The notes: generated from the sequence alone by a model not told the origin. 64,000 nt of DNA from Yuukianura sp. NJ FZ-2021 (GCA_046563655.1 CM102285.1:7192001-7256000), one strand, 5' to 3'. Shown: positions 11,801-62,900, counted from the stretch's first letter. Numbers and translations: made by a program.

Positions 11801-13012
11801 AAGTTTGTTATTACTCATACTCCATCCGCACATTATGCTGCCAACAAATCACCATAAACCTGAATGTCGCTTGCATTTGGCGGCTGGCGGGCGCCCTGGG
11901 GCCACTATTCGCCATGTTTCCAGAGACTTGTGCCAAAACGGGCGCCCTTGTGGAGTTTCATCTTTGCCACCACGGTGGAATTGGAGTAGTTTCGAGCGAG
12001 ACCTATGAGCCGCGGTGTCTCATCAGCAAAAATTTAATAAGAACGGGGATGATACAGTTTCATGTGACTGAAGCGTCGTCCTTAAATGGAGAAACACTTT
12101 GCTCAAATTGTCCGACACTGACAATCCGGCTCTTCCAAATAAATTCTTGGGTCTCAGGCCTGTAAACTGACAGGAAAAACGTAGACAAAGTATAAAAAAA
12201 AGTCACCAGACGTAACTGAAGGAAAAACGCAAAAACAATGAAACAAGCTACGAGGCGAACCATTCTACCAACTGAAATCATAAATGTTGATTAGGTTACC
12301 ACCTTAGGTTGATTAGGTTAGATATGGAGAGTTAGCTCCACCTAGCATATTACGGTGTTGGAGTAAGTTCAAAAATCAAAGCGAGTATGAATTAGTCAAT
12401 AAATCATTCTGAACATCTGAACGTTTTAAGAGAACTTAGATTGTGCCCCCGATTTTTGCGTTCATATTTGGGTAGGTAATTTTGTAATCGAACTCAGAGT
12501 AATCGAAGCTCCAAGGGTTTACGATTACAAATTATAGATTAAAACTTTCAGATAAAAACCCAAAAATCCTTAAAATAATTCCGCTTGTAATAATTTTCAA
12601 TAATTTAGTTTCAGAAACCAGAATTTAAAATAAGACGAATTTTTTGGTCATTATATAGCACTTACGTTCCATGCGATCGTTAACGTCAAATTGACTTTTG
12701 CGGTATGTGTCCACTTATTTTCCCGCGAGTAAAGTAAACCCTGAGAACTGCAAAACCACATTTGCCTCCGTTTTGTGAAGGCAATTTTGTTGTCGTATTC
12801 GATAAAGCAAATGCCCTTGATGATACATCAGTTCGGATTAAATCAGTTTTTGATCGGCGGGTATACTTATCTGCGTCCATGTTGGAATTTATCAGAGAAT
12901 GTCATAAAGGCGAAACTTAAATAATTTAGAAAACTAAGAAATAAGTCAACAAGCGAGTTGAAGGTCAATGACTTTGCTTTGATTTTTGAATTTTCATAGA
13001 AATTTTCAATGT

Positions 13013-13509
13013 TGTAATGAAGTGGCCTTATTTTAGAAATGAAAGGTCAAGACACTACTGTTTTGTGTTTCTGCTTGGTGCAGAAGGAAAATAACTTTTA
13101 TTCAATTAAAGTTTAGTGAAAGGGGATTGACCTCGCAGGGTCAAGTTGGGTTGAACTCAGTCAGAGTTTGAGCAGAGTTCAGTTGGAATTGAAAGTTAGA
13201 AGAAGAATGAATGATGGAGGGCATTGGCAACTGCTCCTTTTATAGGGCCTTACGAGTACCAATGACCCCTTGACATTTAAATGAGGAGTAACTCGTAACT
13301 CCTCTGATGCTAATGAAAACAATGGCAATGAACTCAGTGAGTTCAAGAAACTGGATTTGAACTAGAAAAATCTATTTTTAGACTAAAAAGTAACTTTGTA
13401 CTTTAAGTTATGTGTTTTGTGCAAACACAGTTTGCACAAAGACAAAAGACAAGAGTTATGAAATGGAAATGATCTGTATTTAACAGGAGATTGACCTTAT
13501 ATCATTACA
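13013..13509 (-). repeat. 3' LTR (497 bp)
   Basis: Direct repeat of 19356-19851; TGTAATGA…TCATTACA inverted ends; minus-strand TATAAAA (13238-13244) and AATAAA (13097-13102). Confidence 0.97.
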
Positions 13510-14249
13510 GTCCTCCTTCGTTAGACGGAAGACTCTCCTGAGTTTTCTTAGGCTGAATGAGACATCGATTTGCTTTGTGACCCGGGAGGTTACAGATCCA
13601 GCAGTGACGTGGCCCGCGAGGTTTTGGTCTCGGCTTCGGGATCATCGCAGAAATTGTGGCCTTGATGTCCCGTGGGTCAGTGACGATGACAATTGGTCTG
13701 CCAGCGGAGCGTTGTTGTTGTTGTTCTTGTTGTTTTGGTCGTCTCAGCGGCGGCGGAAGTCCTGTGCTCATCCGAGCGTAGGTTCTCGGCTGACGTTCCA
13801 TTTGTCGGAGGTTTTGGAGCCGTTCCATTTGTCGGAGGTTTTGGAGAGGAGATTCGGACGTCATCGGCACGGGTCGTTGAACCTTCGGGATTCTCCATGC
13901 AGAAAAGTTGATTCCACCGTTTGGAGGGTTGTCGTTACGCAGTAACGGTACGGTTGGAGTCTCCGATGTTACGGAAGAAGTAGAATTGATGGTGATCGTT
14001 GGTGAAATGGCTCTCCGTTGAACTTGTAGGTTTTGGAATTGATCTAAAATAAAAAATAAAAGAATAATTAGAAAAATAAATATAATTTAAAAGTTGGGTA
14101 TGTTATGGGAATGGGGATGGACAGAAGATGTTGCATGAAGTCAAAGGTCGAAAGGTCATTGCACTTTACTTACCAGCGACTTCTTCGTCAACACGAAGCA
14201 ATGCTTCTTCTTGCTCGAGGTCCATGTCCTCAATATTCCCATTGGCCAT
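13505..14249 (-). CDS. Spliced ORF3 of the LTR element: 204-aa low-complexity protein with a C-terminal CCHC zinc knuckle
   Basis: Exon 14249-14174 (ATG; MANGNIEDMDLEQEEALL…), intron 14173-14044 (GTAAGT…CTAAT…TTTTATTTTAG), exon 14043-13505. The join is in frame. Motif CWICNLPGHKANRC. Confidence 0.7.
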
Positions 14250-17200
14250 AACGATCTGGTTGTCTCGTGGCTCGAGTTGACCTTCTGAGTTGTAGTGGTG
14301 ACGGTTGGTTGACCTCCGGTAGACTTTCGGACAGAGTTCCCTCGTCTTCGAGTTCTGATGCAGGACTGACAGGGTCACCGTCATCCTGACCTGTATTTAT
14401 AGGGGATCTGAACTGGTCACTACCACTGTCACTTGCACTATCCGAGTCAGTGCCACTGAACTTGTTTGAATGTGCCGATGAACTTTTATCTAATTTAGCA
14501 CTAGTTTGCGTAGCAGATGAACTTGAATTTGACCTGATTTGACTATTTGCACTTGAACTGATCTTTGCATGATCAGCTGTGTGATGTGAAGTGGAGGAGT
14601 GTGATTCAGCTACAGTTTGCACTTTCCTCCCCCTCCTTACTTTAGCACTAATGGGAGTTCCAGGGGACCCATTGTTGCCTTTTGGCTGAAGAATTGTCTT
14701 TCTCTGTTTGACATGATCAGTGAAGCTACTTTCGCTTTCACTGTCGGAGGAAGGCATAAACTGCGAGTTGTATCGCTCTATGTCCCTAACATGAACAATT
14801 ACCTTTTTAGAGCGACTATTCATTTTTTTGATTTCGTAATTAACATTACTAGTCTGCCTAATAATTTCATAAGGGCCGTCCTTTTGAGCAATCAATGCTT
14901 TTGAAAGGCCTTTCTTTAAAATTGGTTTTGATCTCAAAACCAAATCACCTACTTTAAATTGATGTTCTTTTCGAGTCTTATTGACTCGAACTTTATTTTT
15001 CTCATGATTTTTCCTGGAATTTAGTTGAGCTTTGTGCCAATCCTCTTTTAATTTTTCCAAATCATGTTCTTCATCAGAATCAAAGTTTGGAAGATCAAGG
15101 TCAATTGGCAAAGTAGCTTCTCTGCCAAATAGTAAATAAAATGGGGAATACTCGGTTGAACAGTGTTTTTGGACATTATAAGAAAATGTCGCTCTGTCCA
15201 AACACGAGTCCCAATTTTGCTGATTTTCCTGAACAGTTTTTGCAATACCCTTTTTAACTGTTTTATTACAGCGTTCCGTCATGCCATTTGCGGCTGGGTG
15301 ATACGGAGCTGTAAATCTAAGTTTAAAACTAAATTCCTTAGCACACGCTTTGACCAAATTGGAAGTGAATTGTCTTCCTCGATCAATCACAAATTCCTTT
15401 GGCAAGGAATGCTTGAAAATAATTTTGTTTTTAATGGCTTCCACGGTCGCTTCTGCTGTAGCTGCCGGAACTGCTAGTGTTTCAGCGTATCTAGTGAAAT
15501 GATCAATAAAAACAATTGCGTATTTGTTTCCTGATTCTGATTTCACAAAAGGGCCAATGTAGTCAATCCCTACTCTTTCGAAGGGTGTGCTGACCTCATC
15601 GAAGCTTTGCATAGGACCATATTCATGACCTACACGTTTCCTAAATTTTTGGCAAATTGGACAACCAAGAATGTATTTTCTTGTGTCCCTGTACATTCCT
15701 ACCCAATGGAAACGACTTCTTACTAAATCCCATGTTTTAGTAATCCCTGCGTGACCTGCTAGGTCACCAGCATGCAGAGAATCCAAAACAATTTTCCTAA
15801 GGCATTTTGGAAGTACGATTTTCCACTGATGTCCAGATGGCGCGAAATTTGGAAAAAGCAAAATTCCATCTTGTAAACTATAATGTTCCAATTGTTTAAC
15901 ATTAGGTTTAGGAATATTACTTATCCCTTTTTCTTCAGATTCAATGTACAAAATGATCGACTTAAGGAAATTGTCAGATCTTTGTTTGACTTTAATTTCA
16001 TTTTTTGAAAATAACTCAGGGACTCCATCCAGAACTAGGACTTCTGAGCTGTCCATGGTCTCTGGTGGGTCAACTGGGTATCTTGACAAGGGGTCAACGT
16101 CATTGGCTGTCCTCCCCGGTCTGTGGACAATAGTCATATCTTGATTTTGCAAGGTTATTGCCCACCTTGCAAGCCTACTATTCACGTCTTTGACAGAAAA
16201 CAGCCATTTAAGGGCGTTATGGTCAGTGTACACAGTATATTTAGTACCATAAATGTAAGGTCTAAATTTTTTGACTGCGTAAACAACTGCCAGGCATTCC
16301 TGTTCTGTCGCGGAATATTTTCGCTCTGCGTCCGTCATGCTTCGACTTGCATAAGAAATGACGCAAGGTTTTTCATTTTGTATTTGGACGAGGGTTGCCC
16401 CAAGCCCATACCCACTACTGTCACAATGTACTTCAGTAGGTACATTGTCCATGGGGTAAGCCAGGATTGGACTGTTAATTAAATAATTTTTTAAAGTCCG
16501 AAATGCTAAGTCCTGTTTTTCTCCCCATTCAAATTTCTGATTTTTCTTTAGTAGTGAATTGAGTGGAATTGCAATTCTACCGTAATTTTGAATGAATCTT
16601 CTGTAGTATCCACACATTCCCAAAAATGATTTCACATCCGTTTGATTTTTTGGAATTGGGAACTTTTCGATCGCAACTGTTTTGTTTGGGTCCACCTGAA
16701 TTCCATGTTCAGATATGACGTGGCCCAAATAGTTGAGTCTGTTGGTTCCAAACACACATTTACTCAATTTCAGGGTTAGACCGGCTTCTTTAAGTCGGTT
16801 TAGAACCGTAACCAGCCTATATTTGTGCTCGTCAAAGGTTCTACCCCAAATTACAAGGTCATCTAAGTACACAAGTACAATGTTCCATTTCAAATTGAGT
16901 AAAACCAAGTCCATTAAGTATTGGAAGCTTGATGGAGCATTGCATAAACCCATAGGCAACCTTTTGAACTGGAATAACCCATCAGGAGTAATAAACGCAG
17001 TTTTTTCTTTGTCTTTTGGATCCATTTCAATTTGATAGAATCCAGACAATAGATCTAAAACTGTGAAATATTTGGCTCCAGAGAGTCTGTCCAAGGCGTC
17101 ATCCATTCTAGGCAATGGATATGAGTTTTTCTTGGTAATTGCATTAAGTTTCCTATAGTCAATGACCAGTCTTGAACTACCGTCCTTTTTAGGTACCAGT

Positions 17201-18465
17201 ATGACAGGAGACGACCAAGGGGAAATGGATTCCTCAATGATCTCACTTTCCAGTAACTTGTTTATTTTTTCCTTAATTTTACTCCTTTGAGGGTACGAGA
17301 CCCTGTAGGGATGACTACGTATAGGTTGACTTTCGCCTGTGTCAATTTTATGACGAACTAGGCTAGTTTTTCCTAAATCCGTTTCATCCTCAGCAAAGAG
17401 CATAGGAAATTGGTTAATTACTTTTGTCATTTCAGTCTTTTCATCGTTTGTCAGGTTGTCTCCTAACTTTGGGGTGAAGTTCCCTAACGTGCCTTCTTCT
17501 GTTTTGATGGTCTCGCCATCTTCAGTAAGATAGTACAAGTTTTTATTAGGAGGACAAATTTCACCATAACAAATTGTTGTGCCTTTTGCTAAGGTCACAG
17601 CAAAGTTATTTAAATTGGTGAGCCATATTTCGGTACGGCTGTCCCTGACTGTCGAGTAGACATACGGTTGGAGTAAGGCATGAGTCTCATTAAGTTTCTT
17701 GTTTGGATTTAAAATAACTGATCCAGAAATGATGAAATCAGACTCAACTGTAATTCTTGAACACTTTTTTGGTTCCAGTCGGACTGTTTTTGTCAAATTG
17801 AATTTGTTTAACTGAGGCTCATTTTCCTCAGCCTTGGGCAAATCCAATGGTGACTCTTCATCAATTATTGGAAATTTGTTTTTGTCCATGTTTCTTGTAG
17901 TCCAATCAGTCCCTAACAGCATTTGGGGTTTTAATCCCACCATTATATGGAATCCCCAGACAGTGAGTACATGGTTGTGGTAGAACCGTAGTTCAACAAT
18001 TTCATCAACCGCTGTTACACTGTTTGCTGTGTTGACCATGATTGGGCAAATCTTGTACCTCTTATGAATGAATTCTTTTAATTCATTCAACCGTTCTAAG
18101 CCAATGCTGCTGAAGTTGGCACCTTCATCGACTTGAACTCTATACGTTTTGTTACCAAACAAAAGTTCAGTAAAGACTTTTGGCCCATACCTCCATTTTC
18201 TGAAAGGTACAGGAACTGTTATCCCTTCAACTGAAGTTTCAGGGATCGAGTCGGATGCTACATTAATTGAATTAATTGAATTCAAATTTTTCTTTACTTT
18301 ACTAGCGTATGTTTCACTAGTAGTTTGTTTATTTTTGTTTTCTGAAAAATTTTTATTTTCAGTAGTGAGGGCATTTTGCCCTTGCTTGCATTTGTTTACT
18401 TTTTGTAAAGAGAAGTTATACGCTGTTTTTATTTGTGGGTGAGCGTAAGCACCCGATTCATTTAG
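14230..18465 (-). CDS. pol: Pol polyprotein (aspartic protease, dUTPase-like linker, RT, RNase H, integrase), likely expressed by -1 frameshift from gag
   Basis: Frame is open from the gag stop to 14230. Motifs VDEGA, SPWSSPVILVPKKDG, YLDD, CDSSGYGLGA, YTDH, H-H-C-C zinc finger, DYIGPF…D…E and GPY. Confidence 0.95.
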   Translation of the reverse strand, partial: LNESGAYAHPQIKTAYNFSLQKVNKCKQGQNALTTENKNFSENKNKQTTSETYASKVKKNLNSINSINVASDSIPETSVEGITVPVPFRKWRYGPKVFTELLFGNKTYRVQVDEGANFSSIGLERLNELKEFIHKRYKICPIMVNTANSVTAVDEIVELRFYHNHVLTVWGFHIMVGLKPQMLLGTDWTTRNMDKNKFPIIDEESPLDLPKAEENEPQLNKFNLTKTVRLEPKKCSRITVESDFIISGSVILNPNKKLNETHALLQPYVYSTVRDSRTEIWLTNLNNFAVTLAKGTTICYGEICPPNKNLYYLTEDGETIKTEEGTLGNFTPKLGDNLTNDEKTEMTKVINQFPMLFAEDETDLGKTSLVRHKIDTGESQPIRSHPYRVSYPQRSKIKEKINKLLESEIIEESISPWSSPVILVPKKDGSSRLVIDYRKLNAITKKNSYPLPRMDDALDRLSGAKYFTVLDLLSGFYQIEMDPKDKEKTAFITPDGLFQFKRLPMGLCNAPSSFQYLMDLVLLNLKWNIVLVYLDDLVIWGRTFDEHKYRLVTVLNRLKEAGLTLKLSKCVFGTNRLNYLGHVISEHGIQVDPNKTVAIEKFPIPKNQTDVKSFLGMCGYYRRFIQNYGRIAIPLNSLLKKNQKFEWGEKQDLAFRTLKNYLINSPILAYPMDNVPTEVHCDSSGYGLGATLVQIQNEKPCVISYASRSMTDAERKYSATEQECLAVVYAVKKFRPYIYGTKYTVYTDHNALKWLFSVKDVNSRLARWAITLQNQDMTIVHRPGRTANDVDPLSRYPVDPPETMDSSEVLVLDGVPELFSKNEIKVKQRSDNFLKSIILYIESEEKGISNIPKPNVKQLEHYSLQDGILLFPNFAPSGHQWKIVLPKCLRKIVLDSLHAGDLAGHAGITKTWDLVRSRFHWVGMYRDTRKYILGCPICQKFRKRVGHEYGPMQSFDEVSTPFERVGIDYIGPFVKSESGNKYAIVFIDHFTRYAETLAVPAATAEATVEAIKNKIIFKHSLPKEFVIDRGRQFTSNLVKACAKEFSFKLRFTAPYHPAANGMTERCNKTVKKGIAKTVQENQQNWDSCLDRATFSYNVQKHCSTEYSPFYLLFGREATLPIDLDLPNFDSDEEHDLEKLKEDWHKAQLNSRKNHEKNKVRVNKTRKEHQFKVGDLVLRSKPILKKGLSKALIAQKDGPYEIIRQTSNVNYEIKKMNSRSKKVIVHVRDIERYNSQFMPSSDSESESSFTDHVKQRKTILQPKGNNGSPGTPISAKVRRGRKVQTVAESHSSTSHHTADHAKISSSANSQIRSNSSSSATQTSAKLDKSSSAHSNKFSGTDSDSASDSGSDQFRSPINTGQDDGDPVSPASELEDEGTLSESLPEVNQPSPLQLRRSTRATRQPDRYGQWEY

Positions 18466-18471
18466 TTTTTT
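18437..18471 (-). promoter_or_regulatory. Programmed -1 ribosomal frameshift signal
   Basis: Heptamer A AAA AAC (18471-18465) lies immediately before the gag TAA; hairpin GGGTG-N8-CACCC starts 10 nt downstream; the -1 frame is open into pol. Confidence 0.8.
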
Positions 18472-19340
18472 GTAGTTTTAATTGTTTCAGTGACTTCTAC
18501 ATTGTCAACTGAAGTAAAAGAAGTGCTTCCAGATTTGTTACCATCTTTGTGCCAACAGTCATCGTACACGTGACCTGGCTTTTTACAACCTGTGCAGAAC
18601 TTTCGTTTCTTTTGTTCAAAGTTTCTGCCAGTTTCTGTTGCAGAGGTAAGAGTAGAAGACTCTTTTTGCTTATTTGCATTTGTATTTTCTGCAGGTGATT
18701 TGAATTTGACCTGCGAATTTTGACCTTTTTTGTCATTGTTGAAGTTAGGCTTTTCTAACTTCCTAAGTTTTTGTAAAAACTCGGCTGGAGTTTTGGGGTC
18801 AATCAAGGTCATCATGTTTTTTACAGAATATGGGAGACCTTTGATTAATTTTTCAACTTGTTTTTCTTCTGACATGTCTGGGTCAATGACCGACAGGCAT
18901 GCCAGTTTCTTGGCGACATACTCAGAATGTGAGTCGCAAGTTTGTAGAAAAATAGTTTTCAGTTTCCTCTTTGCGTCAGATTTGACCTGTTCGGGGTCAT
19001 AGAATGACCTGATCGCAATTTTTAACTCTTGCCATTTGGAATTGGCATTTGCAGGGGTCAAATCCCTGATAATTTTTGTTTGTGACCATCGCCACCATTC
19101 TAGTGCTTCACCTTCCATCAAAAGATGGAAGTTTAGGATCAGCGAATTGCTGTCCAGAGCACCCGATGCAATTAGAGCATCGCACCTTAAGGTCAACAGG
19201 TCAACGTTCGTCTTGCCATCAAAAAGAGGCACCGAACGTACCACAGCCTTTAGGTCAAATGGTTTGGTCAACGCCTGTGCGGACCCGTTAGGAGTAGGCA
19301 AAGGAATTGAGGTAGAGGTCGAGGTCATGTTTTGGTTCAT
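18462..19340 (-). CDS. gag: Gag (capsid-like region plus CCHC knuckle)
   Basis: VPLFDG, LMEGEALEWW and LIKGLP capsid-type motifs; CTGCKKPGHVYDDC; first ATG at 19340. Confidence 0.92.
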   Translation of the reverse strand: MNQNMTSTSTSIPLPTPNGSAQALTKPFDLKAVVRSVPLFDGKTNVDLLTLRCDALIASGALDSNSLILNFHLLMEGEALEWWRWSQTKIIRDLTPANANSKWQELKIAIRSFYDPEQVKSDAKRKLKTIFLQTCDSHSEYVAKKLACLSVIDPDMSEEKQVEKLIKGLPYSVKNMMTLIDPKTPAEFLQKLRKLEKPNFNNDKKGQNSQVKFKSPAENTNANKQKESSTLTSATETGRNFEQKKRKFCTGCKKPGHVYDDCWHKDGNKSGSTSFTSVDNVEVTETIKTTKN

Positions 19341-19355
19341 AGGCTCGTCCACTAT

Positions 19356-19851
19356 TGTAATGAAGTGGCCTTATTTTAGAAATGAAAGGTCAAGACACTA
19401 CTGTTTTGTGTTTCTGCTTGGTGCAGAAGGAAAATAACTTTTATTCAATTAAAGTTTAGTGAAAGGGGATTGACCTCGCAGGGTCAAGTTGGGTTGAACT
19501 CAGTCAGAGTTTGAGCAGAGTTCTGGTAGGTTTTAAAGATTGAAAGTGAATGATGATGGAGGGCATTGGCAACTGCTCCTTTTATAGGGCCTTACGAGTA
19601 CCAATGACCCCTTGACATTTAAATGAGGAGTAACTCGTAACTCCTCTGATGCTAATGAAAACAATGGCAATGAACTCAGTGAGTTCAAGAAACTGGATTT
19701 GAACTAGAAAAATCTATTTTTAGAGTAAAAAGTAACTTTGTACTTTAAGTTATGTGTTTTGTGCAAACACAGTTTGCACAAAGACAAAAGACAAAAGTTA
19801 TGAAATGGAAATGATCTGTATTTAACAGGAGATTGACCTTATTTCATTACA
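19356..19851 (-). repeat. 5' LTR (496 bp)
   Basis: Direct repeat of 13013-13509. Confidence 0.97.
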
Positions 19852-29432: not shown

Positions 29433-31844
29433 TATGGTGGCCCCAGAGTGCCAATGCTGTTTTTCTCATTTTGTAATTCAAAAAGCATTTTCAAATGCAT
29501 TTTCAATTGCATTTCATTTTAAAAAGCATTTTCAAATGCATTTTCAATTGCATTTCATTTTAAAAAGCATTTTCAAAAGCATTTTCAATTGCATTTCATT
29601 TTAAAAAGCATTTTCAAATGCATTTTCATTTGCATTTCATTTTAAAAAGCATTTTCAATTGCATTTCATTTCAAAAAGCATTTTCAATTGCATTTCGTTT
29701 CAAAAACCATTCTCAATTGCATTTCATTTCAAAAAGCATTTTCAATTGCATTTCAATTTCAATTTCAAAATGAAAATGCACTTGGCCCTTCTGGGCTCCT
29801 AATTCAAATTCAATTTGAAAATGAAAATGCATTTGGCCCTTCTGGGCTCCTTATTCAAAAAGTGCGCCTCCTTCATACCATGTGACTTTTTTGTGTCTGA
29901 AAGTGGAAAAGTCTTGAGTTCCTATAGACATCACTAGTGCCAGTTCACAAATGGGCACAAATGCCAAATCTCAAATTATCGAATGTTTTGTTAATTTTAA
30001 GTTTGTATTCTAATTATCTATTCATTTAAATATTAATTTAAATTTTTCATTTCCATATTAATATATTCTACGGTGGTGATTGACGTTCTACTGTAATGTT
30101 TCGATTGAGTTGATCGTGTAATTTACACATGGTTACTGAAATGTCATAAATCTCTACATTGTAATAAGAATTCATAATTAAATTTATTGTAAACTCATTC
30201 CGAAGCGCAAATTCATTTGTTTTTAATTGGCCTTTGACTGCGTTTAGAAAGTCCAACGGACGTAGCTAGGACATTGAGCATATGAAAAGATACTAATTCT
30301 CAAAGCTAACGATTTCTCAAAAACGAAAGGTCAGAATTTGATGACGTGATGCAGGGGCAGTGTTGGCTTATTGTAGTACCTACACAATAAATTTCAGCTT
30401 TCCGACATCTCAACTCTAATTTTCCGATAAAGTGAAATCCTCCTGCAGGAAAACTTAGGTTATTTTGTTTTAGTCAACCCTAATCTTACTTGCCTACCCT
30501 AGCTAAACGAAAACTCAGATTTTCATGTAACTTTAGGGGTATAATTATTAAAGTGCTTAGAGTATCCCCTTTAATTTACAGCTTCGCCACAAGTCGGTTT
30601 CTTGGTGAAATGTTGGTGGAGATAGTGAGTCGACGATGGACTTCGTTAAGATAATAATTCTCAAAGTTAACCGTCGTCGTCTCGTCGACTCACTATCTCC
30701 ACCAACATTTCACCAAGAAACCGACTTGTGGCGAAGCTGTAAATTAAAGGGGATACTCTAAGCACTTTAATAATTATACCCCTAAAGTTACATGAAAATC
30801 TGAGTTTTCGTTTAGCTAGGGTAGGCAAGTAAGATTAGGGTTGACTAAAACAAAATAACCTAAGTTATCCTGCAGGAGGATTTCACTTTATCGGAAAATT
30901 AGAGTTGAGATGTCGGAAAGCTGAAATTTATTGTGTAGGTACTACAATAAGCCAACACTGCCCCTGCATCACGTCATCAAATTCTGACCTTTCGTTTTTG
31001 AGAAATCGTTAGCTTTGAGAATTAGTATCTTTTCATATGCTCAATGTCCTAGCTACGTCCGTTGGACTTTCTAAACGCAGTCAAAGGCCAATTAAAAACA
31101 AATGAATTTGCGCTTCGGAATGAGTTTACAATAAATTTAATTATGAATTTTTATTACAATGTAGAGATTTATGACATTTCAGTAACCATGTGTAAATAAC
31201 ACGATCAACTCAATCGAAACATTACAGTAGAACGTCAATCACCACCGTAGAATATATTAATATGGAAATGAAAAATTTAAATTAATATTTAAATGAATAG
31301 ATAATTAGAATACAAACTTAAAATTAACAAAACATTCGATAATTTGAGATTTGGCATTTGTGCCCATTTGTGAACTGGCACTAGTGATGTCTATAGGAAC
31401 TCAAGACTTTTCCACTTTCAGACACAAAAAAGTCACATGGTATGAAGGAGGCGCACTTTTTGAATAAGGAGCCCAGAAGGGCCAAATGCATTTTCATTTT
31501 CAAATTGAATTTGAATTAGGAGCCCAGAAGGGCCAAGTGCATTTTCATTTTGAAATAGAAATTGAAATGCAATTGAAAATGCTTTTTGAAATGAAATGCA
31601 ATTGAGAATGGTTTTTGAAACGAAATGCAATTGAAAATGCTTTTTGAAATGAAATGCAATTGAAAATGCTTTTTAAAATGAAATGCAATTGAAAATGCTT
31701 TTGAAAATGCTTTTCAAAATGAAATGCAATTGAAAATGCTTTTGAAAATGCTTTTCAAAATGAAATGCAATTGAAAATGCATTTGAAAATGCTTTTTGAA
31801 TTACAAAATGAGAAAAACAGCATTGGCACTCTGGGGCCACCATA
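29433..31844. mobile_element. Fold-back/palindromic element 2 (2.4 kb) with modular tandem repeats in its arms
   Basis: 29433-30636 is the reverse complement of 30682-31844 (45-nt loop). Termini TATGGTGG…CCACCATA; ATTAAG on both flanks. Arms carry arrays of TTTTCAATTGCATTTCATTTTAAAAAGCA, with ~41 bp more on the left. Confidence 0.93.
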
Positions 31845-33036
31845 ATTAAGTTTTTAATCAAATTCAAGATGTTTCTAATTTATTCCTTTGCTCTTCCTCC
31901 AATTTCTTGCCAAAACACTTTTGAGCAACTTCCATCACAGAATTCTGCTGAGAGTTCCCGCACTTCCCTTAAAATCCTGTTAAAGCTAATCCAACTTCAT
32001 AGTTTCCACAACATTAGAAATATACCAAATTATCAATAAAAAAAAATATAGTAAATTTTGGAGCCACTACACTTGTTCAAATTGACCTGTTCAATTATGG
32101 AAGGAAATAATACTTTCAGTGTATTGATATAAGGAAATACAGGGGTACTCAAAAGATTCCTTCGCACTTGTTTTGAAGTAAAATATTTTGTTATTGTAAA
32201 ATCCACAGGCAATTTCACTGATTATAGTTTGTCTCTTTTTAGAAGACACTTTTTGTTTTCGTCGTTTTTTCGCTTCCATTGCGACGCTTATGGAAGAACT
32301 CAGTTTTTCAAACACACTTTCTCCATTAGGTTTGTACACAAAATTTCAAAAAATTCATAATTCCTATGTTAAGAAGGAATAAGACATGGCAACGGTGGGT
32401 CTCGTTTTGCCTCAAATTAATTAATTTCAGGCTTAATAAGTCGTCACAGGAATGACCTAGAAATTTGTACAATAGCTCTAAAAATTCCTTGATATTCGCA
32501 GAATAATTATTAGGGCTCAGAATTTGACTTTTAGCAGCTGAATGATACTAAAAATCCGATACAAAGGTTCAATTTTGTATAAGTATTGTATGACACAAAA
32601 AATTTGGAAATTGGCCCCTAACTGTTATGCGCCATGGTCTTCCGAATTTTTAGACACCTTAAACGCATTTTTAGGTCTTATAAAAAAAAAGTTATAAGAC
32701 AAAACAGATGTAATTCTGACATTATTCAATAATTTGCAAATATCGGCACCGAAATCAACCGTCTCCATGGGCACAAGGTTGTTGTTGAGTCCCAGGTTGT
32801 TTGAATTCCTATCCTGCGAAAAACTTTGGTTTGTCAATCATTGGAAACAGTGCAAGTTTGAGCAGTGATTTTGCTTTGTTACTAATGACAATGGCTGACA
32901 CCAAATCGTAAACAAACGCTGCCTCTTACCCGTCCTTAACGGTCCATAAGGCGACTGGAATTGTTTTCAAATTTGAAAAGTGTCTTCTAATAAAAAGAGA
33001 CAAACTATAATAAAATAATTATTTTACACTTTATAG

Positions 33037-36000
33037 TTTTTTTTTTTTTTTTTTTTTTTAAATTTGAACAAATTCAATATTTTTAATTGACAGAACTGAA
33101 AAAACTTACACCTGCCAGAGGCAGGTTGAGGTATTTAAAGACGTATTGAAAAAATTTTTAAATCATATAAATTTCGTAGAGTTCTTTTCCTGACGGTAGG
33201 GTACCCAATATAGAAGTGGCATTTCCTCTTTGGATGGCAAGGCTAATTCGTTGAAAGAGGAAGGATGTTGCTCGATTGTCACCGGTGGCTTCTGAGAGGC
33301 GATGTCCAATGGAATTGAGTAGACGTCGGCCTTCTTCCCCGTAGACTCCAGTTGTCTCGACTGCAATGATGGAAACAATAAATCGATGATCAAGGTCACG
33401 GTAGAGGTCATGCTTATGGATTTCAGCAACGGCAGCAGGATGACCGAGAACGGAGGATGATGTTGCTAGGTAGGACGCAGCGAAGGTGTCACGGCAGGTA
33501 AAGTCCCAGGCAAGGGAGCGACCGGACTTCCAAGGAATGAGAGTGATTCCATCAGGTCGCTTTCCATCAGTTCTGGAACAGCCGGAAGGTTCTTTCATAC
33601 ATGGTATTCCACTTGTTTGAAGCGATCTTGAAATGATGTCGTTTACAGCGGCGTGTCTTGAATGTCTGCCTGCACTTCTCGTACAGCTTAGGCCGTGCAA
33701 GCCGTTGCTTGATACCAAAGTTCCGCATGGACATCGATGAGGTTGGCAAATTTCGGTGCCTAGCCGCAATCCACAAGAAATTCTGAAGGTTTGGTCTGAA
33801 AGGAGCGTCCCAAGAGGCGAAGATGGAATAGCCAGTAGCCAATCTCCAGAATGAGGGGCGGCTGAAGCAAGCAGTCGTGCTTTATCGATGAGAGTGGTTG
33901 ATTTCTCCAGCAGGTTGGAGTAGATTTTTTCGAAGATCTGAATTTCCCAGAGTTTTTGTATTTTTCCATCTTGCGGCGTTATGAAGTCCAAATTTGACCA
34001 ACTGAGGGAAGCAAGGTCCACTGACTTATCGAAAGGCGAAAGATGTGGTGGAAGGAAGGTAGAAATTAGTTCGGCACAACTATAGACTGAAGCCAAAAAG
34101 GAAAATGTAGCACAGTCCGTCGCGTGGCGAATGCCTAAACCCCTTGATTCACAGGCAAAGAAGACTGCAACCATGCTTCTTCATTCAAACTTGAGTTCAG
34201 GATGGATTCCAACACGGTGCGTAAAGCTGAGTCGTAAGCTTGTAGGAGGTCAGGTTCGAGGAATGCAGGAGAACATCTGACAAAGTACAGAAGTCTTGGT
34301 GTTGAAATTGATGCCCTAAGTAGAAAAAACGCTACATGGGCTGGCAGGCAAGAGAGTCTTGATGAAAGTCTGTTGAAGTCATCAGTTTTGTATTTGAGGA
34401 TACGACGTGAAGATTCTTTGAACAGAGGCGCTCCCAACAGTTCCGTTTGTTCTTTCTCGGGGAAGACGAACTCCGGCGAAATCGATTTGAAGGAGTTTGT
34501 GATTAACTTTTGTTCAGACTGGTCGGCAGACAGAATGATTACTTCGCATTTCTTCATGTTCAAATGCAGACCAAAAGAACTGGCACTAGATTGGATGGTT
34601 ATGAGGTTTTTGAGCACAACATCTGGAGAGTCGCCAATTGTCGCGTCGTCTAAGTACCACGAATTGAATTCGGTCGTTAGGGATGCGGCTAGTGGGTGAA
34701 TTGTTAGTGCGAAAAGTGCAGGACCCAATGGGCAACCTTGTTGGACTCCTAACTTGGACTTGATGCAGCTAGAGTTGTAGAAGAGGTCTGATTCGAACGA
34801 GTATGCTTGAGAGACGAAATTGAAGATTTCTGGTAGATGAGTTTTCACAGCATTCAGCATTTGATCTCTTCTGATAAGATTAAAGGCGTTTCGAAAATCC
34901 AACTTCAGAAGAACCTTGGGAGAGGCGTGATTGGCGTTGCAGAAGATCCTGGCAGCGTGAGCCACGGCTTCGGCTCCGTTCTTGACGCCGACGCCTGTTT
35001 GAATTGGATGTAGGATGGACGAAATGGCGTTCATTGAGCGCGACAGGATTAGCTTCGACACTAGGCGTCTCCAGGTGAGGCCGATTGCAATTGGCCGGAT
35101 TCCACCTTTTTTCTTCTGAATCGCAATAAGGGAAGCACCGAAGAACACAGGCCGGATGTCGACAGGAAGAGAATCATTAGCGATGAGATTGCACAGCTTG
35201 GAAATTGAAGATAGCAGCGCTAAACCTGCATCTCCTGATGATTTTGATGTAAGTTCTTTTAGTATTTGAGGACGAAGCGAGTCAAGGCCACCGGAAGAAC
35301 CATTTGGGAATGAAGAGATAGATTTCAGGATGTCACTTTCTTCGAAAATGATGTTTGTTGGAGAAGGTGGGTCTGGCATGACGGTTGGTAGAGGATGAGC
35401 CGGGTGTAACTCGTGGAGGGCTTCAATAGTGGAGGAGTCATCCGATGCCAAACAGTCATCAGAACAGAGAACTCGAATGGATCCACGAATGTCGCCGTCC
35501 GCTAGTTTAGATTGAACAAGTTTGGAACAATTCCAGTGTTGGGATGATGGCAAGTAGCGGGGGAGATTATGAGTTGATGGTGAGTTGAAGAACGTAGACG
35601 ATGAGGAGGAGAAGCGGTTGACATTTGACTTCACCCATTTGGTCAGATTTGGAACAGGGTCTTCTTTTTTCGGAAGATGTAGTGCTGCATATGGAAAACA
35701 GAAAAGCCTTTCCCACGATTCCGAGGAGTTCTCGGTAACGACTTGTTCTATGACGGCGGAGAGTGTGGATGCCACAACTTGTCTAGCTCCCTTGGGGATG
35801 TGTTTGAGAATTTGAATTGATTTTTTCAAAAGTGCGAGTCGTGAACCAATAGTAAGATCCGGAGATGATGATTGAGCAGTGGGGTCCAAAAATGTAATCC
35901 CAAGATACGATTGTTCAATGTGTTTCCGTCCGCTCGCCCTTGTTTTGGTGATATTTGGAAATATCTTCAAAAGTTTTGAACCCATGGTTGTGTCAGCTAG

Positions 36001-36730
36001 TGGTTTGATATGAATTGATGCACAAAAGCGGTGGTATTTGTCTTTAAATTCCTGCTTTTTCATCAAACCACCGGAGACAAGGCGGATATTGTTTGAGATC
36101 CAGTCGTCACTTAGTTTGGAAATTACAGATTTGCTTCGATTCTCGGAAGTAGAAGTACGATTGGAGAATGTCTGATGTCTGGCTGAATCGTCAACTCCCA
36201 ATCCGCAGTCATCTAATGATGACCCGATTCCGGGAATCTCCACGATTGTAATGTCACGGATCGATGTTTCTGGGTCGTTTTGAACGACATTGGGATCAGA
36301 CGAACAGTCAAAAGTAAAGTTGGTTTGAGAGTCTTGATTCGGATGAATGTTTGAACTGAAGTTTTCCATTCTCTCACTTGTTGTTGTTGTCAAGGTTATG
36401 CGAATGATAATTGTGAATTCGGAATTTTTCGAAGAAAAATTAGTGAAGGCCCAATGTTGTCCAGGAGATAAGCAATTGATGATTTGTTTGTTTGAGTTAT
36501 GATGTCTTGAGAGCGAATTTTGGAGTCAGAATTTCAGGACTTTGGTTGACGAAAGTGGGCCAGTTGACAAGTGTCCGGTTGTAAAATGCATGTAGAAGCA
36601 CATCAAAGGATGCGCGACAATGAGATGAACAATCTGATATGAAAATGATGGACTTTTGTACTAAATTCACTCAGAAAACAATCAAAAACTCGGGAGCGAA
36701 TTTTTGCGTGTCAACAGATTGTTTTTTCTA
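33037..36730 (-). mobile_element. CRE-like non-LTR retrotransposon (RT plus restriction-like endonuclease), apparently full length
   Basis: Poly(A) tail seen as T23 at 33037-33059; TSD candidate TATAGTTT at 33032 and 36731; single long ORF with RT and RLE. Confidence 0.9.
33158..36369 (-). CDS. Non-LTR ORF: RFX-like winged helix, RT, CCHC finger and PD-(D/E)xK endonuclease; one frameshift at ~34140
   Basis: Motifs IRPIAIG, KLDFRNAFN, GVQQGCPLGPALF, WYLDD, CPCG…HGLSC, RHAAVND, KRPDG…AWDFT and AVETTG. The conserved LP…GGLG is broken by a G4 run where G5 would restore the frame. Confidence 0.9.
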
Positions 36731-38324
36731 TATAGTTTATTGTCTGTGTCATTTGTCAGTGAGGAACTGTTTAATTTAAAGAAAATTTGAAATTTAAAGA
36801 ATTTAAAGAAAATGGCTAATGAATGATTCAATTGTTATTTTAGTTAGTTATTATTGCTTACAATAATAGCTAACTTACTTTGTTTAAATTCTCACTTTTA
36901 GAAATCACACATATTACACTATGAATTACTCAGTTCCTTCTGCAACTCTAACACAAATTCGTTGCAGCGGATGTTGTTTTCTGTTTGTAATCCATTTAGA
37001 AATGGTACTACGCATGGATGATTCAAATTGCGTCATGACCTTAGCTGTTATATTATATGTGACATTGGCTTCGCGTATTCACGACAAGCTCAAGTAGTTA
37101 TTCTTGAAAGAATGTCACAAGCGGGACAAAGCTGTCAAGTTCCTGGACAGAGAGAAATATCCTCCGTAGTGTTTTTGTCTTGAATTTTGATCAGTGAAAT
37201 GATCTTGTCGCAGAGGTCATTTTCCTCTAGCTCTTTGATATTTCCCCCGAGGCTATTTACTACTTAGGCAGTCAGCCTATCATATCCACTGTCGCTTAAA
37301 TATAGCGTAACTTTCACATGGAAACTAACGTAACACAATCCTCCCAAATTTACACATTCACATCGCTTCCAACAACTAAAACCTAACTTTCCAGTGCTCT
37401 TTATTGAAGTTTGACCACTGAAATCATTCTCAAAGCTACGGTATTAGTACCTGTTTATTAAGGACGCCCAACAAGAGTTAATGGTCAAATTCAGTAACCA
37501 AGACAACCGATACTTGTGCATCTAATAAAAGTTGCAAACATCGGCAAAGAGAAGCTGCCTCGTTACTGGTGAAAAACTATTATCCTAAAGATGAGTACCA
37601 TATTTTACGTACTTTATCAACATTTGTTTTTATAGAAAGATGATTTATTTGTCAAAGTTTTAGAGTAACGACAAACTAATTTTCAAAACTGGTGATACAG
37701 AGATAAGATTATTTTTGTATCACTGTTTTCAAAATCTTCAACTTGATTCTTGTTTTTACCACTCGTGTGCTTTACCTTATAAACATTCACACTTGGATTC
37801 TTGAAGGAATTTGGCGCTATTTATTAGATAAGCTCACTGAGTACAAATGACGGGGAACGTTTTGCGCACGGCGAGTTCACATTAGGTATAGACAATTTTT
37901 TTTTGCAAAGAAGTTAATTTAAAATTTGATGGGATAAATTTAAAATTGGATTGGATAAATTCTCAACCCTATATTGATATTGTTTGATGAAAAACTTTTC
38001 AAACTTCGTATTTTAGAAACAGAAGAAAGTATTAACTTTCACTTTCTCCATACGCTAACTATGCAGGAAAGATGGGATCGAGCTCATCTTCTCACTTTGT
38101 TTAGGTTTTGGAAAGTTGTCGAGAAGTTAAGTGGGAAAGCGAAAAGAAAGGTTTTGAAAGCGATTAATCACTTTCAGCATTAGTTTCCTCATGTTCACAG
38201 TCTCTAGCGCTCATGCCTAGAGACAGCGGATAAGTGATTTTTAAAGTCCCACAACTGAACTTTCTCCGGTCACGGAGTCACATCCTCATCTACTGAACCG
38301 CCGTCTCCTATTAGCTCTAAACAC

Positions 38325-55462: not shown

Positions 55463-56574
55463 TATGGAGGGAGTTGGGTGACAAAATTATTTTTAAGTTT
55501 CGCGCGTTAAAACATGTTCCGCCAATTAAAAACTAACGTTTTCGCGTATTACTTTAATGCGCGAAAACTTTTTTTAATTGCAGTAATTTTAAATTGCAGA
55601 AAAATTTTAACGCGCGAAAAAGTTTAAGCGTACGTTAACGGAACGTACGCTTAGGAAACGTACGCTTAGGGAACGTACGCTTAGAAAACTTACGCTTTAG
55701 AATGCATGTCCAATAGAAATAACATTGCCAGAACTGATCAGAATTAGTATTCTGTAAATTATTATTTATTGTCTATTATTATTTATTATTTATTATCTAT
55801 TGTAAACTATAAAACACTTCTTTTCTCATATGCTTTGTAAGGTTTTCAAAAATGTGTAGCCTCATCCAGTGTTGCTGGATATCCACTTTTTCGACATTTC
55901 GTCCACGGCTGGATATCCACAGGAAGAAATGGACGAATCCAAAGGGGTGGAGCTTTGCCCGCGTGGTTTGAAATACTTAAATCCAAAAAACTTAAGAAAT
56001 TCAAAATACCGTACAAAAACAAAGGAAATGTCGTTTTTGAGTTTTAAATAAATACTTAATTTTAGCAATAAAAGAAACTCCTTTTGATCTTTTTTGTCCA
56101 GCCGTGGACGAAATGTCAAAAAAGTGGATATCCAGCAACACTGGATGAGGCTACACATTTTTGAAAACCTTACAAAGCATATGAGAAAAGAAGTGTTTTA
56201 TAGTTTACAATAGATAATAAATAATAAATAATAATAGACAATAAATAATAATTTACAGAATACTAATTCTGATCAGTTCTGGCAATGTTATTTCTATTGG
56301 ACATGCATTCTAAAGCGTAAGTTTTCTAAGCGTACGTTCCCTAAGCGTACGTTTCCTAAGCGTACGTTCCTAAGCGTACGTTCCTAAGCGTACGTTCCGT
56401 TAACGTACGCTTAGACTTTTTCGCGCGTTAAAATTTTTCTGCAATTTAAAATTACTGCAATTAAAAAAGTTTTCGCGCATTAAAGTAATACGCGAAAACG
56501 TTAGTTTTTAATTGGCGGAACATGTTTTAACGCGCGAAACTTAAAAATAATTTTGTCACCCAACTCCCTCCATA
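55463..56574. mobile_element. Fold-back/palindromic element 3 (1.1 kb)
   Basis: 55463-55913 is the reverse complement of 56097-56574. Termini TATGGAGG…CCTCCATA; CAATCA on both flanks. Arms differ mainly in copy number of the ~14-bp AACGTACGCTTAGG unit. Confidence 0.93.
55867..56143. mobile_element. hAT-like MITE at the centre of palindrome 3
   Basis: CAGTGTTGCTGGATATCCAC…GTGGATATCCAGCAACACTG; a related copy lies at 2614-2795. Confidence 0.7.
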
Positions 56575-59860: not shown

Positions 59861-59937
59861 TCTTGTTTCTTGTAAGTTTTTTGAAACAAGGATTTGAAAA
59901 AAAAACGGAAATTAAAATTTTGAAATAATTTTTTCAG

Positions 59938-62900
59938 TTAGCCATAAGTTTGGATACGGATTGATGGATGCTGGAGCAATGGTGGACTTGGCATCAACAT
60001 GGAGTGCAGTACCACCACAACATATTTGTAAATCACGAGAAATTCGTGAGGATCGTGAAATTCCTGGAGCACATTTGGGAAAAGTCAAAGTTTTCATGGA
60101 TGTTGACGGTTGCGCTGGAAGTAATTCCGAAATCCGGTTCCTGGAACACGTTCAATGCAAAATCTCACTTCCATTTTTGCCGCGTGGGAACCTTCGTATC
60201 CAACTAACGTCACCGATGGGCACAACTTCTGTTTTACTTTTTGAGAGACCAAGAGATGTCTCCAGTTCGAACTTTGATGACTGGCCGTTTCTCTCCGTCC
60301 ACTTTTGGGGAGAGCAGGCTCATGGACGCTGGACTCTGGAGATTATCAATTCTGGATCCAGAAGAATCAACCAATCAGGAATACTTAAGAAATGGCAACT
60401 CATTTTGTATGGGACAGACGTCAATCCAGTAAGAGTTCGTACTCGGTCTCTTCAAAATCCACAGTTTCCGCCGCCTCCTTTGCCGTCTAACTTGCCGCCC
60501 TACCCACCTCGTCGGCCGAACGTTCAACCCCTGGTCCAACCTCAGCAACAACAACAACAACAATTCCGCCATCCACAACCAGTCGTAACCAGACAATACA
60601 TTCCACAGGAATTCTTGTATCCAGGAGCCTCTGAGCAAATGACACTGATTTGTCCATTTGTGTCAACTCTTGTCCAGAAGGTTACTATGGTAACAGCACA
60701 GACCAAAAGGAATGCCGAACTTGTCCATCAAAATGTAAAGCTTGTCAGAACAGTACAACTTGTACTGCTTGTGAACATAACTTTGTCCTGCTGGAGAGAG
60801 GTTGCGTTCCAAATTGTCCAGAAGGATATTTTGAATCAGATGGGTCATGCGCAGTTTGCCAATCGCTGAGTTGTGCTGCTTGTACTGAAAAAACTTGTGT
60901 AGCCTGTAAAAGTCAAATGGTTTTGCATAATGGAGAATGTTTGCCGCATTGTCCAGGAGGATTCAGACCAACGGCGACGAGAGAGTGTGCGCAGTGTCCG
61001 TCAGGATGCCAGTCATGTGATGAAAATAGGTGCCTCAAATGCTTTGATGGGTTTGCTTTTGGAGAGGATGGAGTCTGTATAGATGAAAACCCGGTAAGTG
61101 TAAGCTGTAAGTTCAAAAATTCCAAAAAAGGGTTTGGATTTTGAAACTGTCATTTTGGTTTTTAGGTGTGTCCAACTGGTCTGTACTTGGACAACGCCAC
61201 GAATCAATGTATGGGTTGTGGTGACGCTGGATGTATTCAATGTGACGGAGCCAATCGCTGCTTGGAGTGTGCAGAAGGTCTGTTTCTAGAAAACGGAGTC
61301 TGCGTCGAGCGGTGTTCAGATGGATTCTACTCTGGGTACAACGGAAAACATTGTTTTAATTGCCCTAGCTTGTGCACCAGTTGCATCTCTGCAGAACAAT
61401 GTACAGAATGTGGTTCTGATGCATTGCTCCAAAGTGCATCATGTCTTCCTCATTGTTTAGCAGGGTAAGGAAGCTACAATTTCTTCAAAATTTTGAAACA
61501 ATTTTCAAAACGAATTTGTTGAAATCACTTTCCTTGAAATTCTAGATTTTACAATGAAAAGGGAGTTTGTCGCCCATGTTCTTCCGGATGCCAGACTTGT
61601 GTAGCTTTTGGAGACACGGAGTGTATCACTTGTAACCAAGGTTACGAGTACACCAGAGGCGGTGGGTGTAGCCCCATAGGAGCAAGTTTTGGTGCTGTTC
61701 AAGACACCTTCCAGGCCCGAGTTGGAGCGAGTCAAGAGCTGAACTTCTGTGGTGCTGGATATTGGTTGAACAGCATTACAAATGAATGTCTACCGTGTCA
61801 TCGAAGTTGTTCCAATTGCACAGGTATGTAGTAATGCAGTTTTCGAATTTTTAAAAAAAATTTCAAACCATAATGCTTTTTTCTTTATAAAGGAGGAAAT
61901 TCATATGACTGTAAAACATGTGTACGGCCCTTGCGATATGATCGCTCAAGCAGTAGTTGCGTTCAGTGTTGTCAACATGCTAACGAAGATGAAGACTGCT
62001 GTCACTGTGATGACTTGGACAGACCTTATCCTAGTGAAGAGACACCTCTTACAAGAGGATTCGATGGTATTTGTCAATAGTTTTCAAAAATTGCTTACTT
62101 TGAAATTGATTTTTTTTTTCGAATTTTGGCTCTAGGTGAATGTCATTCTGTGAAACGAAGAGTTTCTGGAGCGGACGTGCGGGAATCCAGTTCAATGGAA
62201 TCCAATTCGGCTTTTCTTGGGTTATTAATAGCGAAAGCTATTAATAATCTGATTTGCTAAAGAATAAAAAATAAAAGTTTACTTTTTCAAATCTGATTCA
62301 TGTCTGCCTGTCTGTCTGTCTGTCCGTCTGTCCGTCTGTCCAGCTCAATTATCTCAGAAACTACTGGACGGATTTGATTCCGGTTTTCTCCTATCAACAC
62401 CTCATGACCCCAACCTGGTCACTATTGAATATTATCCTGGTAGGTCAACTCCTTCCGGGTGCAAGGTCAAGGTCAACCGGTTCCATCCCCGGTAACCCGG
62501 AAAACGACCTCTACAAAAGTTGTTCATCTCGTCGAGACTAACAACTTTTGTTTATATCAAATGACCCCAAGTGACCTACTTCCGGGTCAAAGCTCAACTT
62601 TTTTTCAAATTAACTTCCTCCTAGCTGGGAAGCGGGGAGGAGCCCACCCCACAGCGCCGGGTGACCCACCCTCGCACCCACGGGTGACCCACACACACCC
62701 CCGGGGAAACCTTCCCCATACCCCGGGGGAACCCACGCCCTTCCCCCGGGGAACCCACGCCCTTCCCCCGGGGAACCAACTAACCCTCCCGGGGAACACA
62801 CCCTCTCTTGTCCAGGGAACCCACCCCACTCGCCCTTGGGGGAGTAGAAGTTTAGTTACCTTCAACAAATACCGCCTTATCGCTTGAGCTATTTCTTATG

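Follow-up and report, generated by a model that had tools for sequence, protein, structure and literature searches.

An RFX-type winged-helix domain in the N-terminal slot of an RLE-type LINE with dispersed insertion

The window, i.e. the whole 64-kb stretch of DNA analysed here, carries a full-length RLE-type non-LTR retrotransposon on its minus strand, and also a Gypsy-type element, exons of a furin-like convertase and inverted tandem arrays:

33037-36730, minus strand: full-length RLE-type non-LTR retrotransposon, ~3.7 kb (near-identical copies, mapped ends)
36731-36738, minus strand: target-site duplication, 5' copy, 8 bp, AAACTATA
33032-33039, minus strand: target-site duplication, 3' copy, its A's merging with the tail
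36370-36728, minus strand: 5' UTR, with a 5'-terminal block kept across subfamilies
36386-36399, minus strand: X-box-like 14-mer, 30 bases upstream of the first ATG, a candidate site
34138-36369, minus strand: ORF from the first ATG to the frameshift, with disordered N-terminus, RFX domain, helical extension and reverse transcriptase (RT)
35893-36105, minus strand: RFX-type winged-helix DNA-binding domain (Pfam, phmmer, AlphaFold, Foldseek, VIA-align)
34435-35121, minus strand: RT domain (Pfam RVT_1), with YLDD at 34645-34656
34139-34143, minus strand: frameshift within a G run (translation; read contigs compared)
33683-33733, minus strand: CCHC zinc knuckle, CPC...H...C (translation)
33158-33600, minus strand: region with RPDG...WD, which we take to be the restriction-like endonuclease (RLE) motif; stop at 33158-33160 (translation)
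33110-33126, minus strand: 3' UTR hairpin, stem 7 bp, loop 3 nt (folding, relatives)
33037-33059, minus strand: poly(A) tail, 23 A
12993-19851, minus strand: full-length Gypsy-type LTR retrotransposon
59916-61144, plus strand: furin-like proprotein convertase, exons with P-domain and cysteine-rich repeats
29480-31797: ~1.6 kb enclosed by a long inverted pair of tandem arrays (41/29-bp and 51-bp)

The Gypsy-type element has a gag (18462-19370) overlapping a 1415-codon pol (14230-18477; RT, RNase H, integrase), and its terminal repeats of ~517 bases are 91-99% alike. A second inverted array pair, similar to the one listed, stands at 55629-56409, and both pairs are possibly foldback transposons.

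The window copy of the LINE is 99.1-99.5% identical to three other copies (L022, L024 and L028) over 3.4-3.7 kb. Its first in-frame ATG is located at 36369 (minus strand), and its ORF is split, as a 1-base shortfall at ~34140 shifts the CCHC knuckle and the endonuclease to the next frame. This frameshift is missing from the contigs of 4/4 sequencing runs, which represent at most two samples and in which near-identical copies are merged, and it is either private to the window copy or an assembly error. The endonuclease region gives no Pfam match. In the intact sister P0005, RT, CCHC knuckle and RLE are complete in one ORF, and the family displays poly(A) or A-rich tails, 5' truncations and target-site duplications, all hallmarks of target-primed reverse transcription (TPRT). 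The RLE-type LINE recognized by the first-pass annotation is thus borne out by the domains of P0005, by their fold match to R2 proteins and by the TPRT hallmarks. The 3' UTR hairpin (folding z -2.0) is likely to be the RNA recognition element, and the tails that follow it vary between near-identical copies. The palindrome in the 3' UTR was also considered as an X-box of the element's own and rejected, as both its arms changed together in family L065, it is missing in several subfamilies and many RFX-free relatives have an analogous pre-tail hairpin.

The RFX DNA-binding domain corresponds to residues 141-211 of a 796-codon frame (34138-36525, minus strand), in which RVT_1 occupies residues 469-697 (E 6.5e-21). 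The match of the whole frame to PF02257 (RFX_DNA_binding) reaches 27.3 bits (E 5.8e-6) for a Pfam cut-off of 27, a 97-aa piece alone scores 32.3 bits (E 1.5e-7), also above the cut-off, and sister copies attain up to 50 bits. RFX5 (8zjr) is the sole significant PDB sequence match by phmmer (E 8.6e-6), the one other having an E of 1.6. The AlphaFold model of the domain, whose input alignment included two host RFX rows, has a pLDDT of 85, and its sole Foldseek matches at E<=0.001 are 8zjr and 1dp7. Aligned by VIA-align, it gives Z 13.0 with RFX5 (rmsd 1.9, 80 aligned) and Z 11.4 with RFX1 (rmsd 2.1, 75 aligned), followed by the origin-binding domain of phage P4 (Z 8.2, rmsd 2.7, 78 aligned), whereas ASFV PrimPol reaches Z 5.7. 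A full-length model made without host RFX rows contains the same secondary-structure elements, at residues 76-160, with residues 1-79 disordered. A winged-helix domain of RFX type, fused in frame with the RT of an RLE-type LINE, is thereby confirmed at the level of profiles and predicted structures. The RFX pattern had been proposed in the first pass, with structure prediction as a check; profile, phmmer, Foldseek and both alignments agree with it. The accompanying suggestion of a D5-primase winged helix turns out to be the weaker one, given the lower Z scores of P4 and ASFV PrimPol and the lack of a D5 match in Pfam at E<=1. The statement that the N-terminus holds no C2H2 finger is likewise upheld: neither C2H2 nor D5 families appear at E<=1 in the whole frame, and no Pfam match corresponds to the N-terminal C2H2 plus Myb typical of the R2 clade. 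One weak zf-FCS match (E 0.13) lies at residues 331-361.

A search of the genome with the domain gives 38 matches among 40 candidates, and RFX, RT and RLE stand in that order in 34/34 stretches covering these 38 matches. Uninterrupted ORFs of 1079-1431 codons are present in 15/42 rows, overlapping stretches counting some copies twice. With the PF02257 profile, 43 matches are obtained over the genome, 39 of them borne by elements (on many contigs, in several subfamilies) and 4 at three host RFX loci; a further 14 RT matches that lack RFX are fragments or truncated at the 5' end. The RFX domains differ across subfamilies (42-100% identity), and family L065/L066 carries a PHD domain and then RFX, the window copy's family being without PHD. 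Subfamilies L034-L036 and L042-L053 include long variable Ser/Ala-rich peptide repeats, of up to ~480 residues, upstream of the RFX domain and after a conserved basic start like MPQRKLKNRSKMK.

Outside this genome, RFX is above the cut-off in 4 and below it in 2 of the 47 relatives scanned, and the remaining ones have C2H2, PHD or OTU in the N-terminal slot. A precomputed RFX domain is found in 5/59 profile-search matches, including OXA58286.1 of Folsomia candida and CAL8107905.1 of Orchesella dallaii, whose database names are R2DM-type Pol or unnamed protein, and our own RFX profile adds two further proteins and the metagenome locus L089. The closest named relatives are springtail proteins. 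As in the window family, RFX directly precedes the same RT body in both OXA58286.1 and CAL8107905.1 (45% and 38% identity), whereas a PHD finger, absent from the window family, precedes RFX in the springtail proteins. The RFX acquisition is common to a lineage reaching springtails and not special to the window copy. No relatives of the element were found in viral contigs, RFX is present in 0/18 loci from the search of other genomes' contigs, and a search of the ESM Atlas gave no usable match. Other additions to the same RT body are an N-terminal OTU protease in P0018 (by Pfam) and P0183 (by eye) and a C-terminal UCH deubiquitinase domain in P0025, P0030-P0032, P0048 and P0054. RLE-type LINE proteins also occur within contigs of 0.16-2.6 Mb labelled bacterial (L229, L236, L237, L238 and L240), and these matches likely reflect eukaryotic contamination of the bins.

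The fusion could be an artefact or a dead passenger, i.e. an exon of host RFX picked up accidentally or joined to the element by mis-assembly. The frameshift of the window copy and a whole-frame PF02257 match barely over the cut-off speak for it, but this explanation is refuted by the 39 element-borne matches on many contigs, by read-derived contigs that cross both the RFX domain and RT, by the same fusion in the Folsomia and Orchesella proteins and by purifying selection on the domain; we consider it extremely improbable. Indeed, pN/pS of the RFX domain is 0.15-0.32 in 7/8 pairs and 0 in the eighth, a near-identical pair, whereas it is 0.69-1.49 in the 60 residues upstream of RFX and 0.10-0.19 in RT, values that indicate purifying selection on the domain.

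Trees were computed from the RT-bearing body only, with the N-terminus excluded and rows not covering the body left out. In the first one (79 rows), a branch with a support of 91 unites 15 RFX rows with a single C2H2 row. In the second one (71 rows), a quick LG+G4 tree with midpoint rooting that retains 22 of the first tree's 64 non-RFX rows, 20 RFX rows belong to a branch of 25 rows (SH-aLRT 92), itself nested in a group that carries mostly C2H2. RFX rows are thus placed among C2H2-bearing relatives, in keeping with the domain acquisition put forward in the first pass. The N-terminal domain states of the second tree need 3 changes, for which one RFX gain followed by swaps back to C2H2 would be the simplest reading. 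A host RFX gene would have been captured once in an ancestor, initially as PHD plus RFX, with PHD later lost in most families of this genome; however, the three changes also allow several captures or swaps back to C2H2.

Nine DNA-contact residues of RFX1 are given in the accessible text of PMC12311785. By this list, the window copy is identical at 2/9 (equivalents of R58 and R62), or at 3 if K counts for R, and the 15 main-family rows retain 2-4 of 9, compared with 9 in host RFX. R58 and R62 are kept in 15/15 of these rows, and the net charge of the domain is +5 to +8. P0015 retains 6 of the nine contacts, in line with a host RFX gene as the source of the domain. An intron-split host RFX gene at G000:C3:10709639-10709911 (L083), with exons RFX5/7-like by eye, represents a candidate donor class.

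Target preference was derived from target-site duplications. Duplications of at least 8 bases were called in 27/34 copies of a first set (139/1122 in a mismatched-pair control), and removal of the doubtful call L052 leaves 26 sites; a held-out set of 39 truncated copies, with duplications in 26, provides 26 further sites, hence 52 pooled. The duplications span 8-15 bp, and the 52 reconstructed sites are all different. In the first 26 sites, positions -4 and -3 favour A and position +3 favours a pyrimidine, and the held-out 26 have A at -4 in 19/26, A at -3 in 18/26 and a pyrimidine at +3 in 22/26 (p 1e-4 to 6e-4). Among the pooled sites, positions -4, -3, 0 and +3 alone exceed the null, which describes a weak AT-rich preference, AAAN|AAWT, of ~3.7 bits (uncorrected) and at the nick only. 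The A-richness beside the nick may come in part from pairing of the poly(A) tail and from duplication calling. No position from -40 to -10 or from +10 to +45 relative to the left edge exceeds the null in the 52 sites, these being pooled over subfamilies with differing RFX domains, so that family-specific motifs could be masked. The fingers of R2Bm read a target motif at -34 to -22 according to the portion available of PMC10499050, and this zone shows no upstream motif in the 52 sites. No fixed offset of an X-box half-site emerges from the 52 sites, and half-sites within 60 bases of 26 sites number 4 vs 4.5 and 3 vs 4.3 expected. The purine at -32 noted among the first 26 sites failed replication (13/26 in the held-out set). 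The family is a dispersed inserter without site specificity, because the 52 sites show the nick preference only, with neither an upstream motif nor an X-box at a fixed offset. The new target specificity suggested as possible in the first pass is accordingly not supported by these sites.

Tandem repeats flank the insertions in 12/35 cases vs 12/160 controls (p 1e-4), the controls being from large contigs only. Three insertions from three subfamilies (L028, L031 and L076) share one orientation and fall inside a ~45-base stretch of a common 155-bp satellite unit, and five others (L032, L035, L069, L074 and L075) are located within or next to another repeat family that they share, 4 of 5 in one orientation. 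In many copies, for example L024, L039, L065 and L066, as many as 36 additional bases, frequently partial repeats of the target, separate the 5' duplication from the start of the element. Tandem copies on C4 and C17 were considered as site-specific arrays and rejected in favour of a single 5'-truncated insertion into a satellite that was then amplified at the DNA level. There (G000:C4:9.088-9.109 Mb and G000:C17:8-33 kb; L021-L027), a ~120-130-bp satellite holds the copy, and the tandem units of 3.7-4.4 kb include one with an open 1160-codon frame and others with frameshifts. L042/L043 (G000:C10:772-779 kb) is a tandem full-length pair with ~140 bases of duplicated target in between, ending in an X-box-like 14-mer that adjoins the 5' junction.

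We regard it as fairly probable that the RFX domain is a loose grip on target DNA that replaces the finger and Myb of R2, while the endonuclease and tail pairing choose the AT-rich nick site. The loose grip is favoured because the insertions are spread over many unrelated AT-rich targets and do not fall on the usual sites of RFX. In R2Bm, the same N-terminal slot contains N-ZnF and Myb, which bind the target DNA on the upstream side of the nick (PMC10499050). The RFX domain would hold double-stranded target DNA with low specificity, its wing arginines (equivalents of RFX1 R58 and R62) still touching DNA and the other X-box contacts having drifted. The endonuclease would then pick a short AT-rich nick site, and TPRT would proceed by analogy with R2, the 3' hairpin acting as a putative RNA handle. 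However, a loose grip leaves the repeat-family hot spots and the 14-mer at the start codon unexplained.

The domain might instead bias insertions towards repeats that contain an X-box or towards nucleosomal DNA while leaving the precise site variable, which seems to us quite improbable. Eight insertions (5/43 in the first set, 3/39 in the held-out one) are clustered in a single orientation over a ~240-base span of one 1-kb repeat family, some copies of which contain the X-box-like 14-mer. A first look at the genome yields 438 candidates for this repeat family, which has a copy at 785-1568 of the window and shows what appear to be hallmarks of a DINE-1/HINE element. The clustering has p 7e-4 if the repeat takes up 0.45% of the genome, but p 0.04 if its local share is 2%; the repeat makes up 6.5% of the first-set flank DNA, and survival in repeat-rich regions may explain much. 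The nick-site matrix was rejected as the cause of the orientation bias (2.2 vs 1.7, background 1.5). Within 500 bases of insertions, 14-mers with up to 3 mismatches number 6 vs 1.9 expected in each set (p ~0.013 each), the first-set count being 8 raw minus one duplicate and minus one within a neighbouring element copy. Nevertheless, most insertions have none, the distances range from 27 to ~450 bases on either side, and the excess is not significant without the hot-spot repeat (7 vs 3.5, p 0.07), nor is there clear enrichment for looser X-box patterns (1 vs 1.75, 10 vs 6.4 and 9 vs 5.4). The nucleosomal variant draws on RFX5, the closest PDB sequence to the domain, which binds and loosens nucleosomes according to the text available of PMC12311785.

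The 14-mer beside the start codon could point to self-regulation, by binding of the element's own RFX domain or of host RFX; the protein might tune its own transcription or, as a variant, hold the 5' end of the new cDNA during second-strand synthesis. This too we judge unlikely. The 14-mer, placed at -30 to -6 relative to the first ATG, can be aligned in 11/11 subfamily representatives, varying mostly at degenerate positions, and ranks third in conservation among the blocks of the 5' UTR (0.70 vs a mean of 0.55). Scored against what we take to be the strict X-box consensus, it is exact in 7/11 and within one mismatch in 10/11, shuffles being as good in at most 1/300 for the exact ones, whereas the 24 RFX-free relatives include 1 exact and 3 within one mismatch. 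Against self-regulation, the 11 sites are one homologous site and not independent events, L089 has no site with up to 1 mismatch in its first 700 bases, and L065/L066, outside the scored set, have at best a 2-mismatch look-alike by eye. In the available text of PMC2375033, the published consensus is RYYNYY N1-3 RRNRAC, which 7/11 match, the window copy not being among them, and which 7-13% of shuffles match; an X-box upstream of an ATG is not predictive alone by the same text. A decayed Met-Ala-Thr start-codon context would also explain the 14-mer, because its central triplet (ATG, ATA or TTG) shares the reading frame of the ORF in 10/11 and a Met-Ala-Thr start occurs in two outside relatives, L104 (without RFX) and L089. 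Another possibility, a rather doubtful one, is that the RFX domain was captured together with its own site, so that it both binds the start-codon 14-mer, for self-regulation or for capture of the 5' end, and tilts insertion to X-box repeats. If true, the LINE protein would at the same time be a transcription factor for its own element.

R2-type proteins are under development for gene insertion, and N-terminal fingers set much of their target choice. The N-terminal slot is exchangeable in nature, with an RFX transcription-factor fold here and C2H2, PHD or OTU in relatives, and a living lineage with intact copies offers natural test cases for slot swaps. An N-terminal domain swap need not confer site specificity. 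For annotation, 39/43 of the genome's RFX profile matches belong to retrotransposons and not to transcription factors. N-terminal variation of RLE elements is known, with 1-3 fingers, proteases and RNase H (PMC4640811, PMC13580325, PMC7650587), and RFX goes unmentioned in the accessible portions of these three papers. An RFX-LINE fusion was not found in our searches of the open literature; Repbase, subscription journals or survey supplements (Fell et al. 2025) may record it.

Among known systems, the CRE clade (SLACS, CZAR, CRE1/2 and animal CRE-like elements) shares with the element one ORF encoding both RT and RLE, as well as poly(A) and target-site duplications and, with its family, variable internal repeats in the N-terminal part, as far as described in the accessible text of PMC12278014. 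Most of the CRE elements described carry 1-2 zinc fingers, whereas the element's family is without N-terminal zinc fingers, and trypanosomatid CRE elements target spliced-leader genes, whereas the element is found at 52 different sites with no fixed site in a repeated gene. The CRE label is plausible for the element, the comparison being by description and the trees containing no named CRE references. RFX factors (RFX1 1dp7, RFX5 8zjr and the three host loci) have the winged helix in common with the element by profile and fold, including core W, Y, P, G and F and the wing arginines. Identity to them is 16-27%, 2/9 DNA-contact residues are kept, and the element domain, unlike these factors, is fused to RT and has no dimerisation domain by Pfam. 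R2 proteins (R2Tg 9nl3/9dou, R2Pm 9nl2, R2Bm 8gh6) are the best Foldseek matches of the full-length P0005 model (E 4e-21 to 1e-18; 13-15% identity), and they share with the element one ORF, an N-terminal DNA-binding module, RT, thumb/linker, CCHC knuckle and RLE. The module consists of C2H2 finger(s) plus Myb in R2, whereas it is an RFX winged helix in the element, and R2 uses one 28S rDNA site, whereas the element is found at dispersed AT-rich sites with 8-15-bp duplications.
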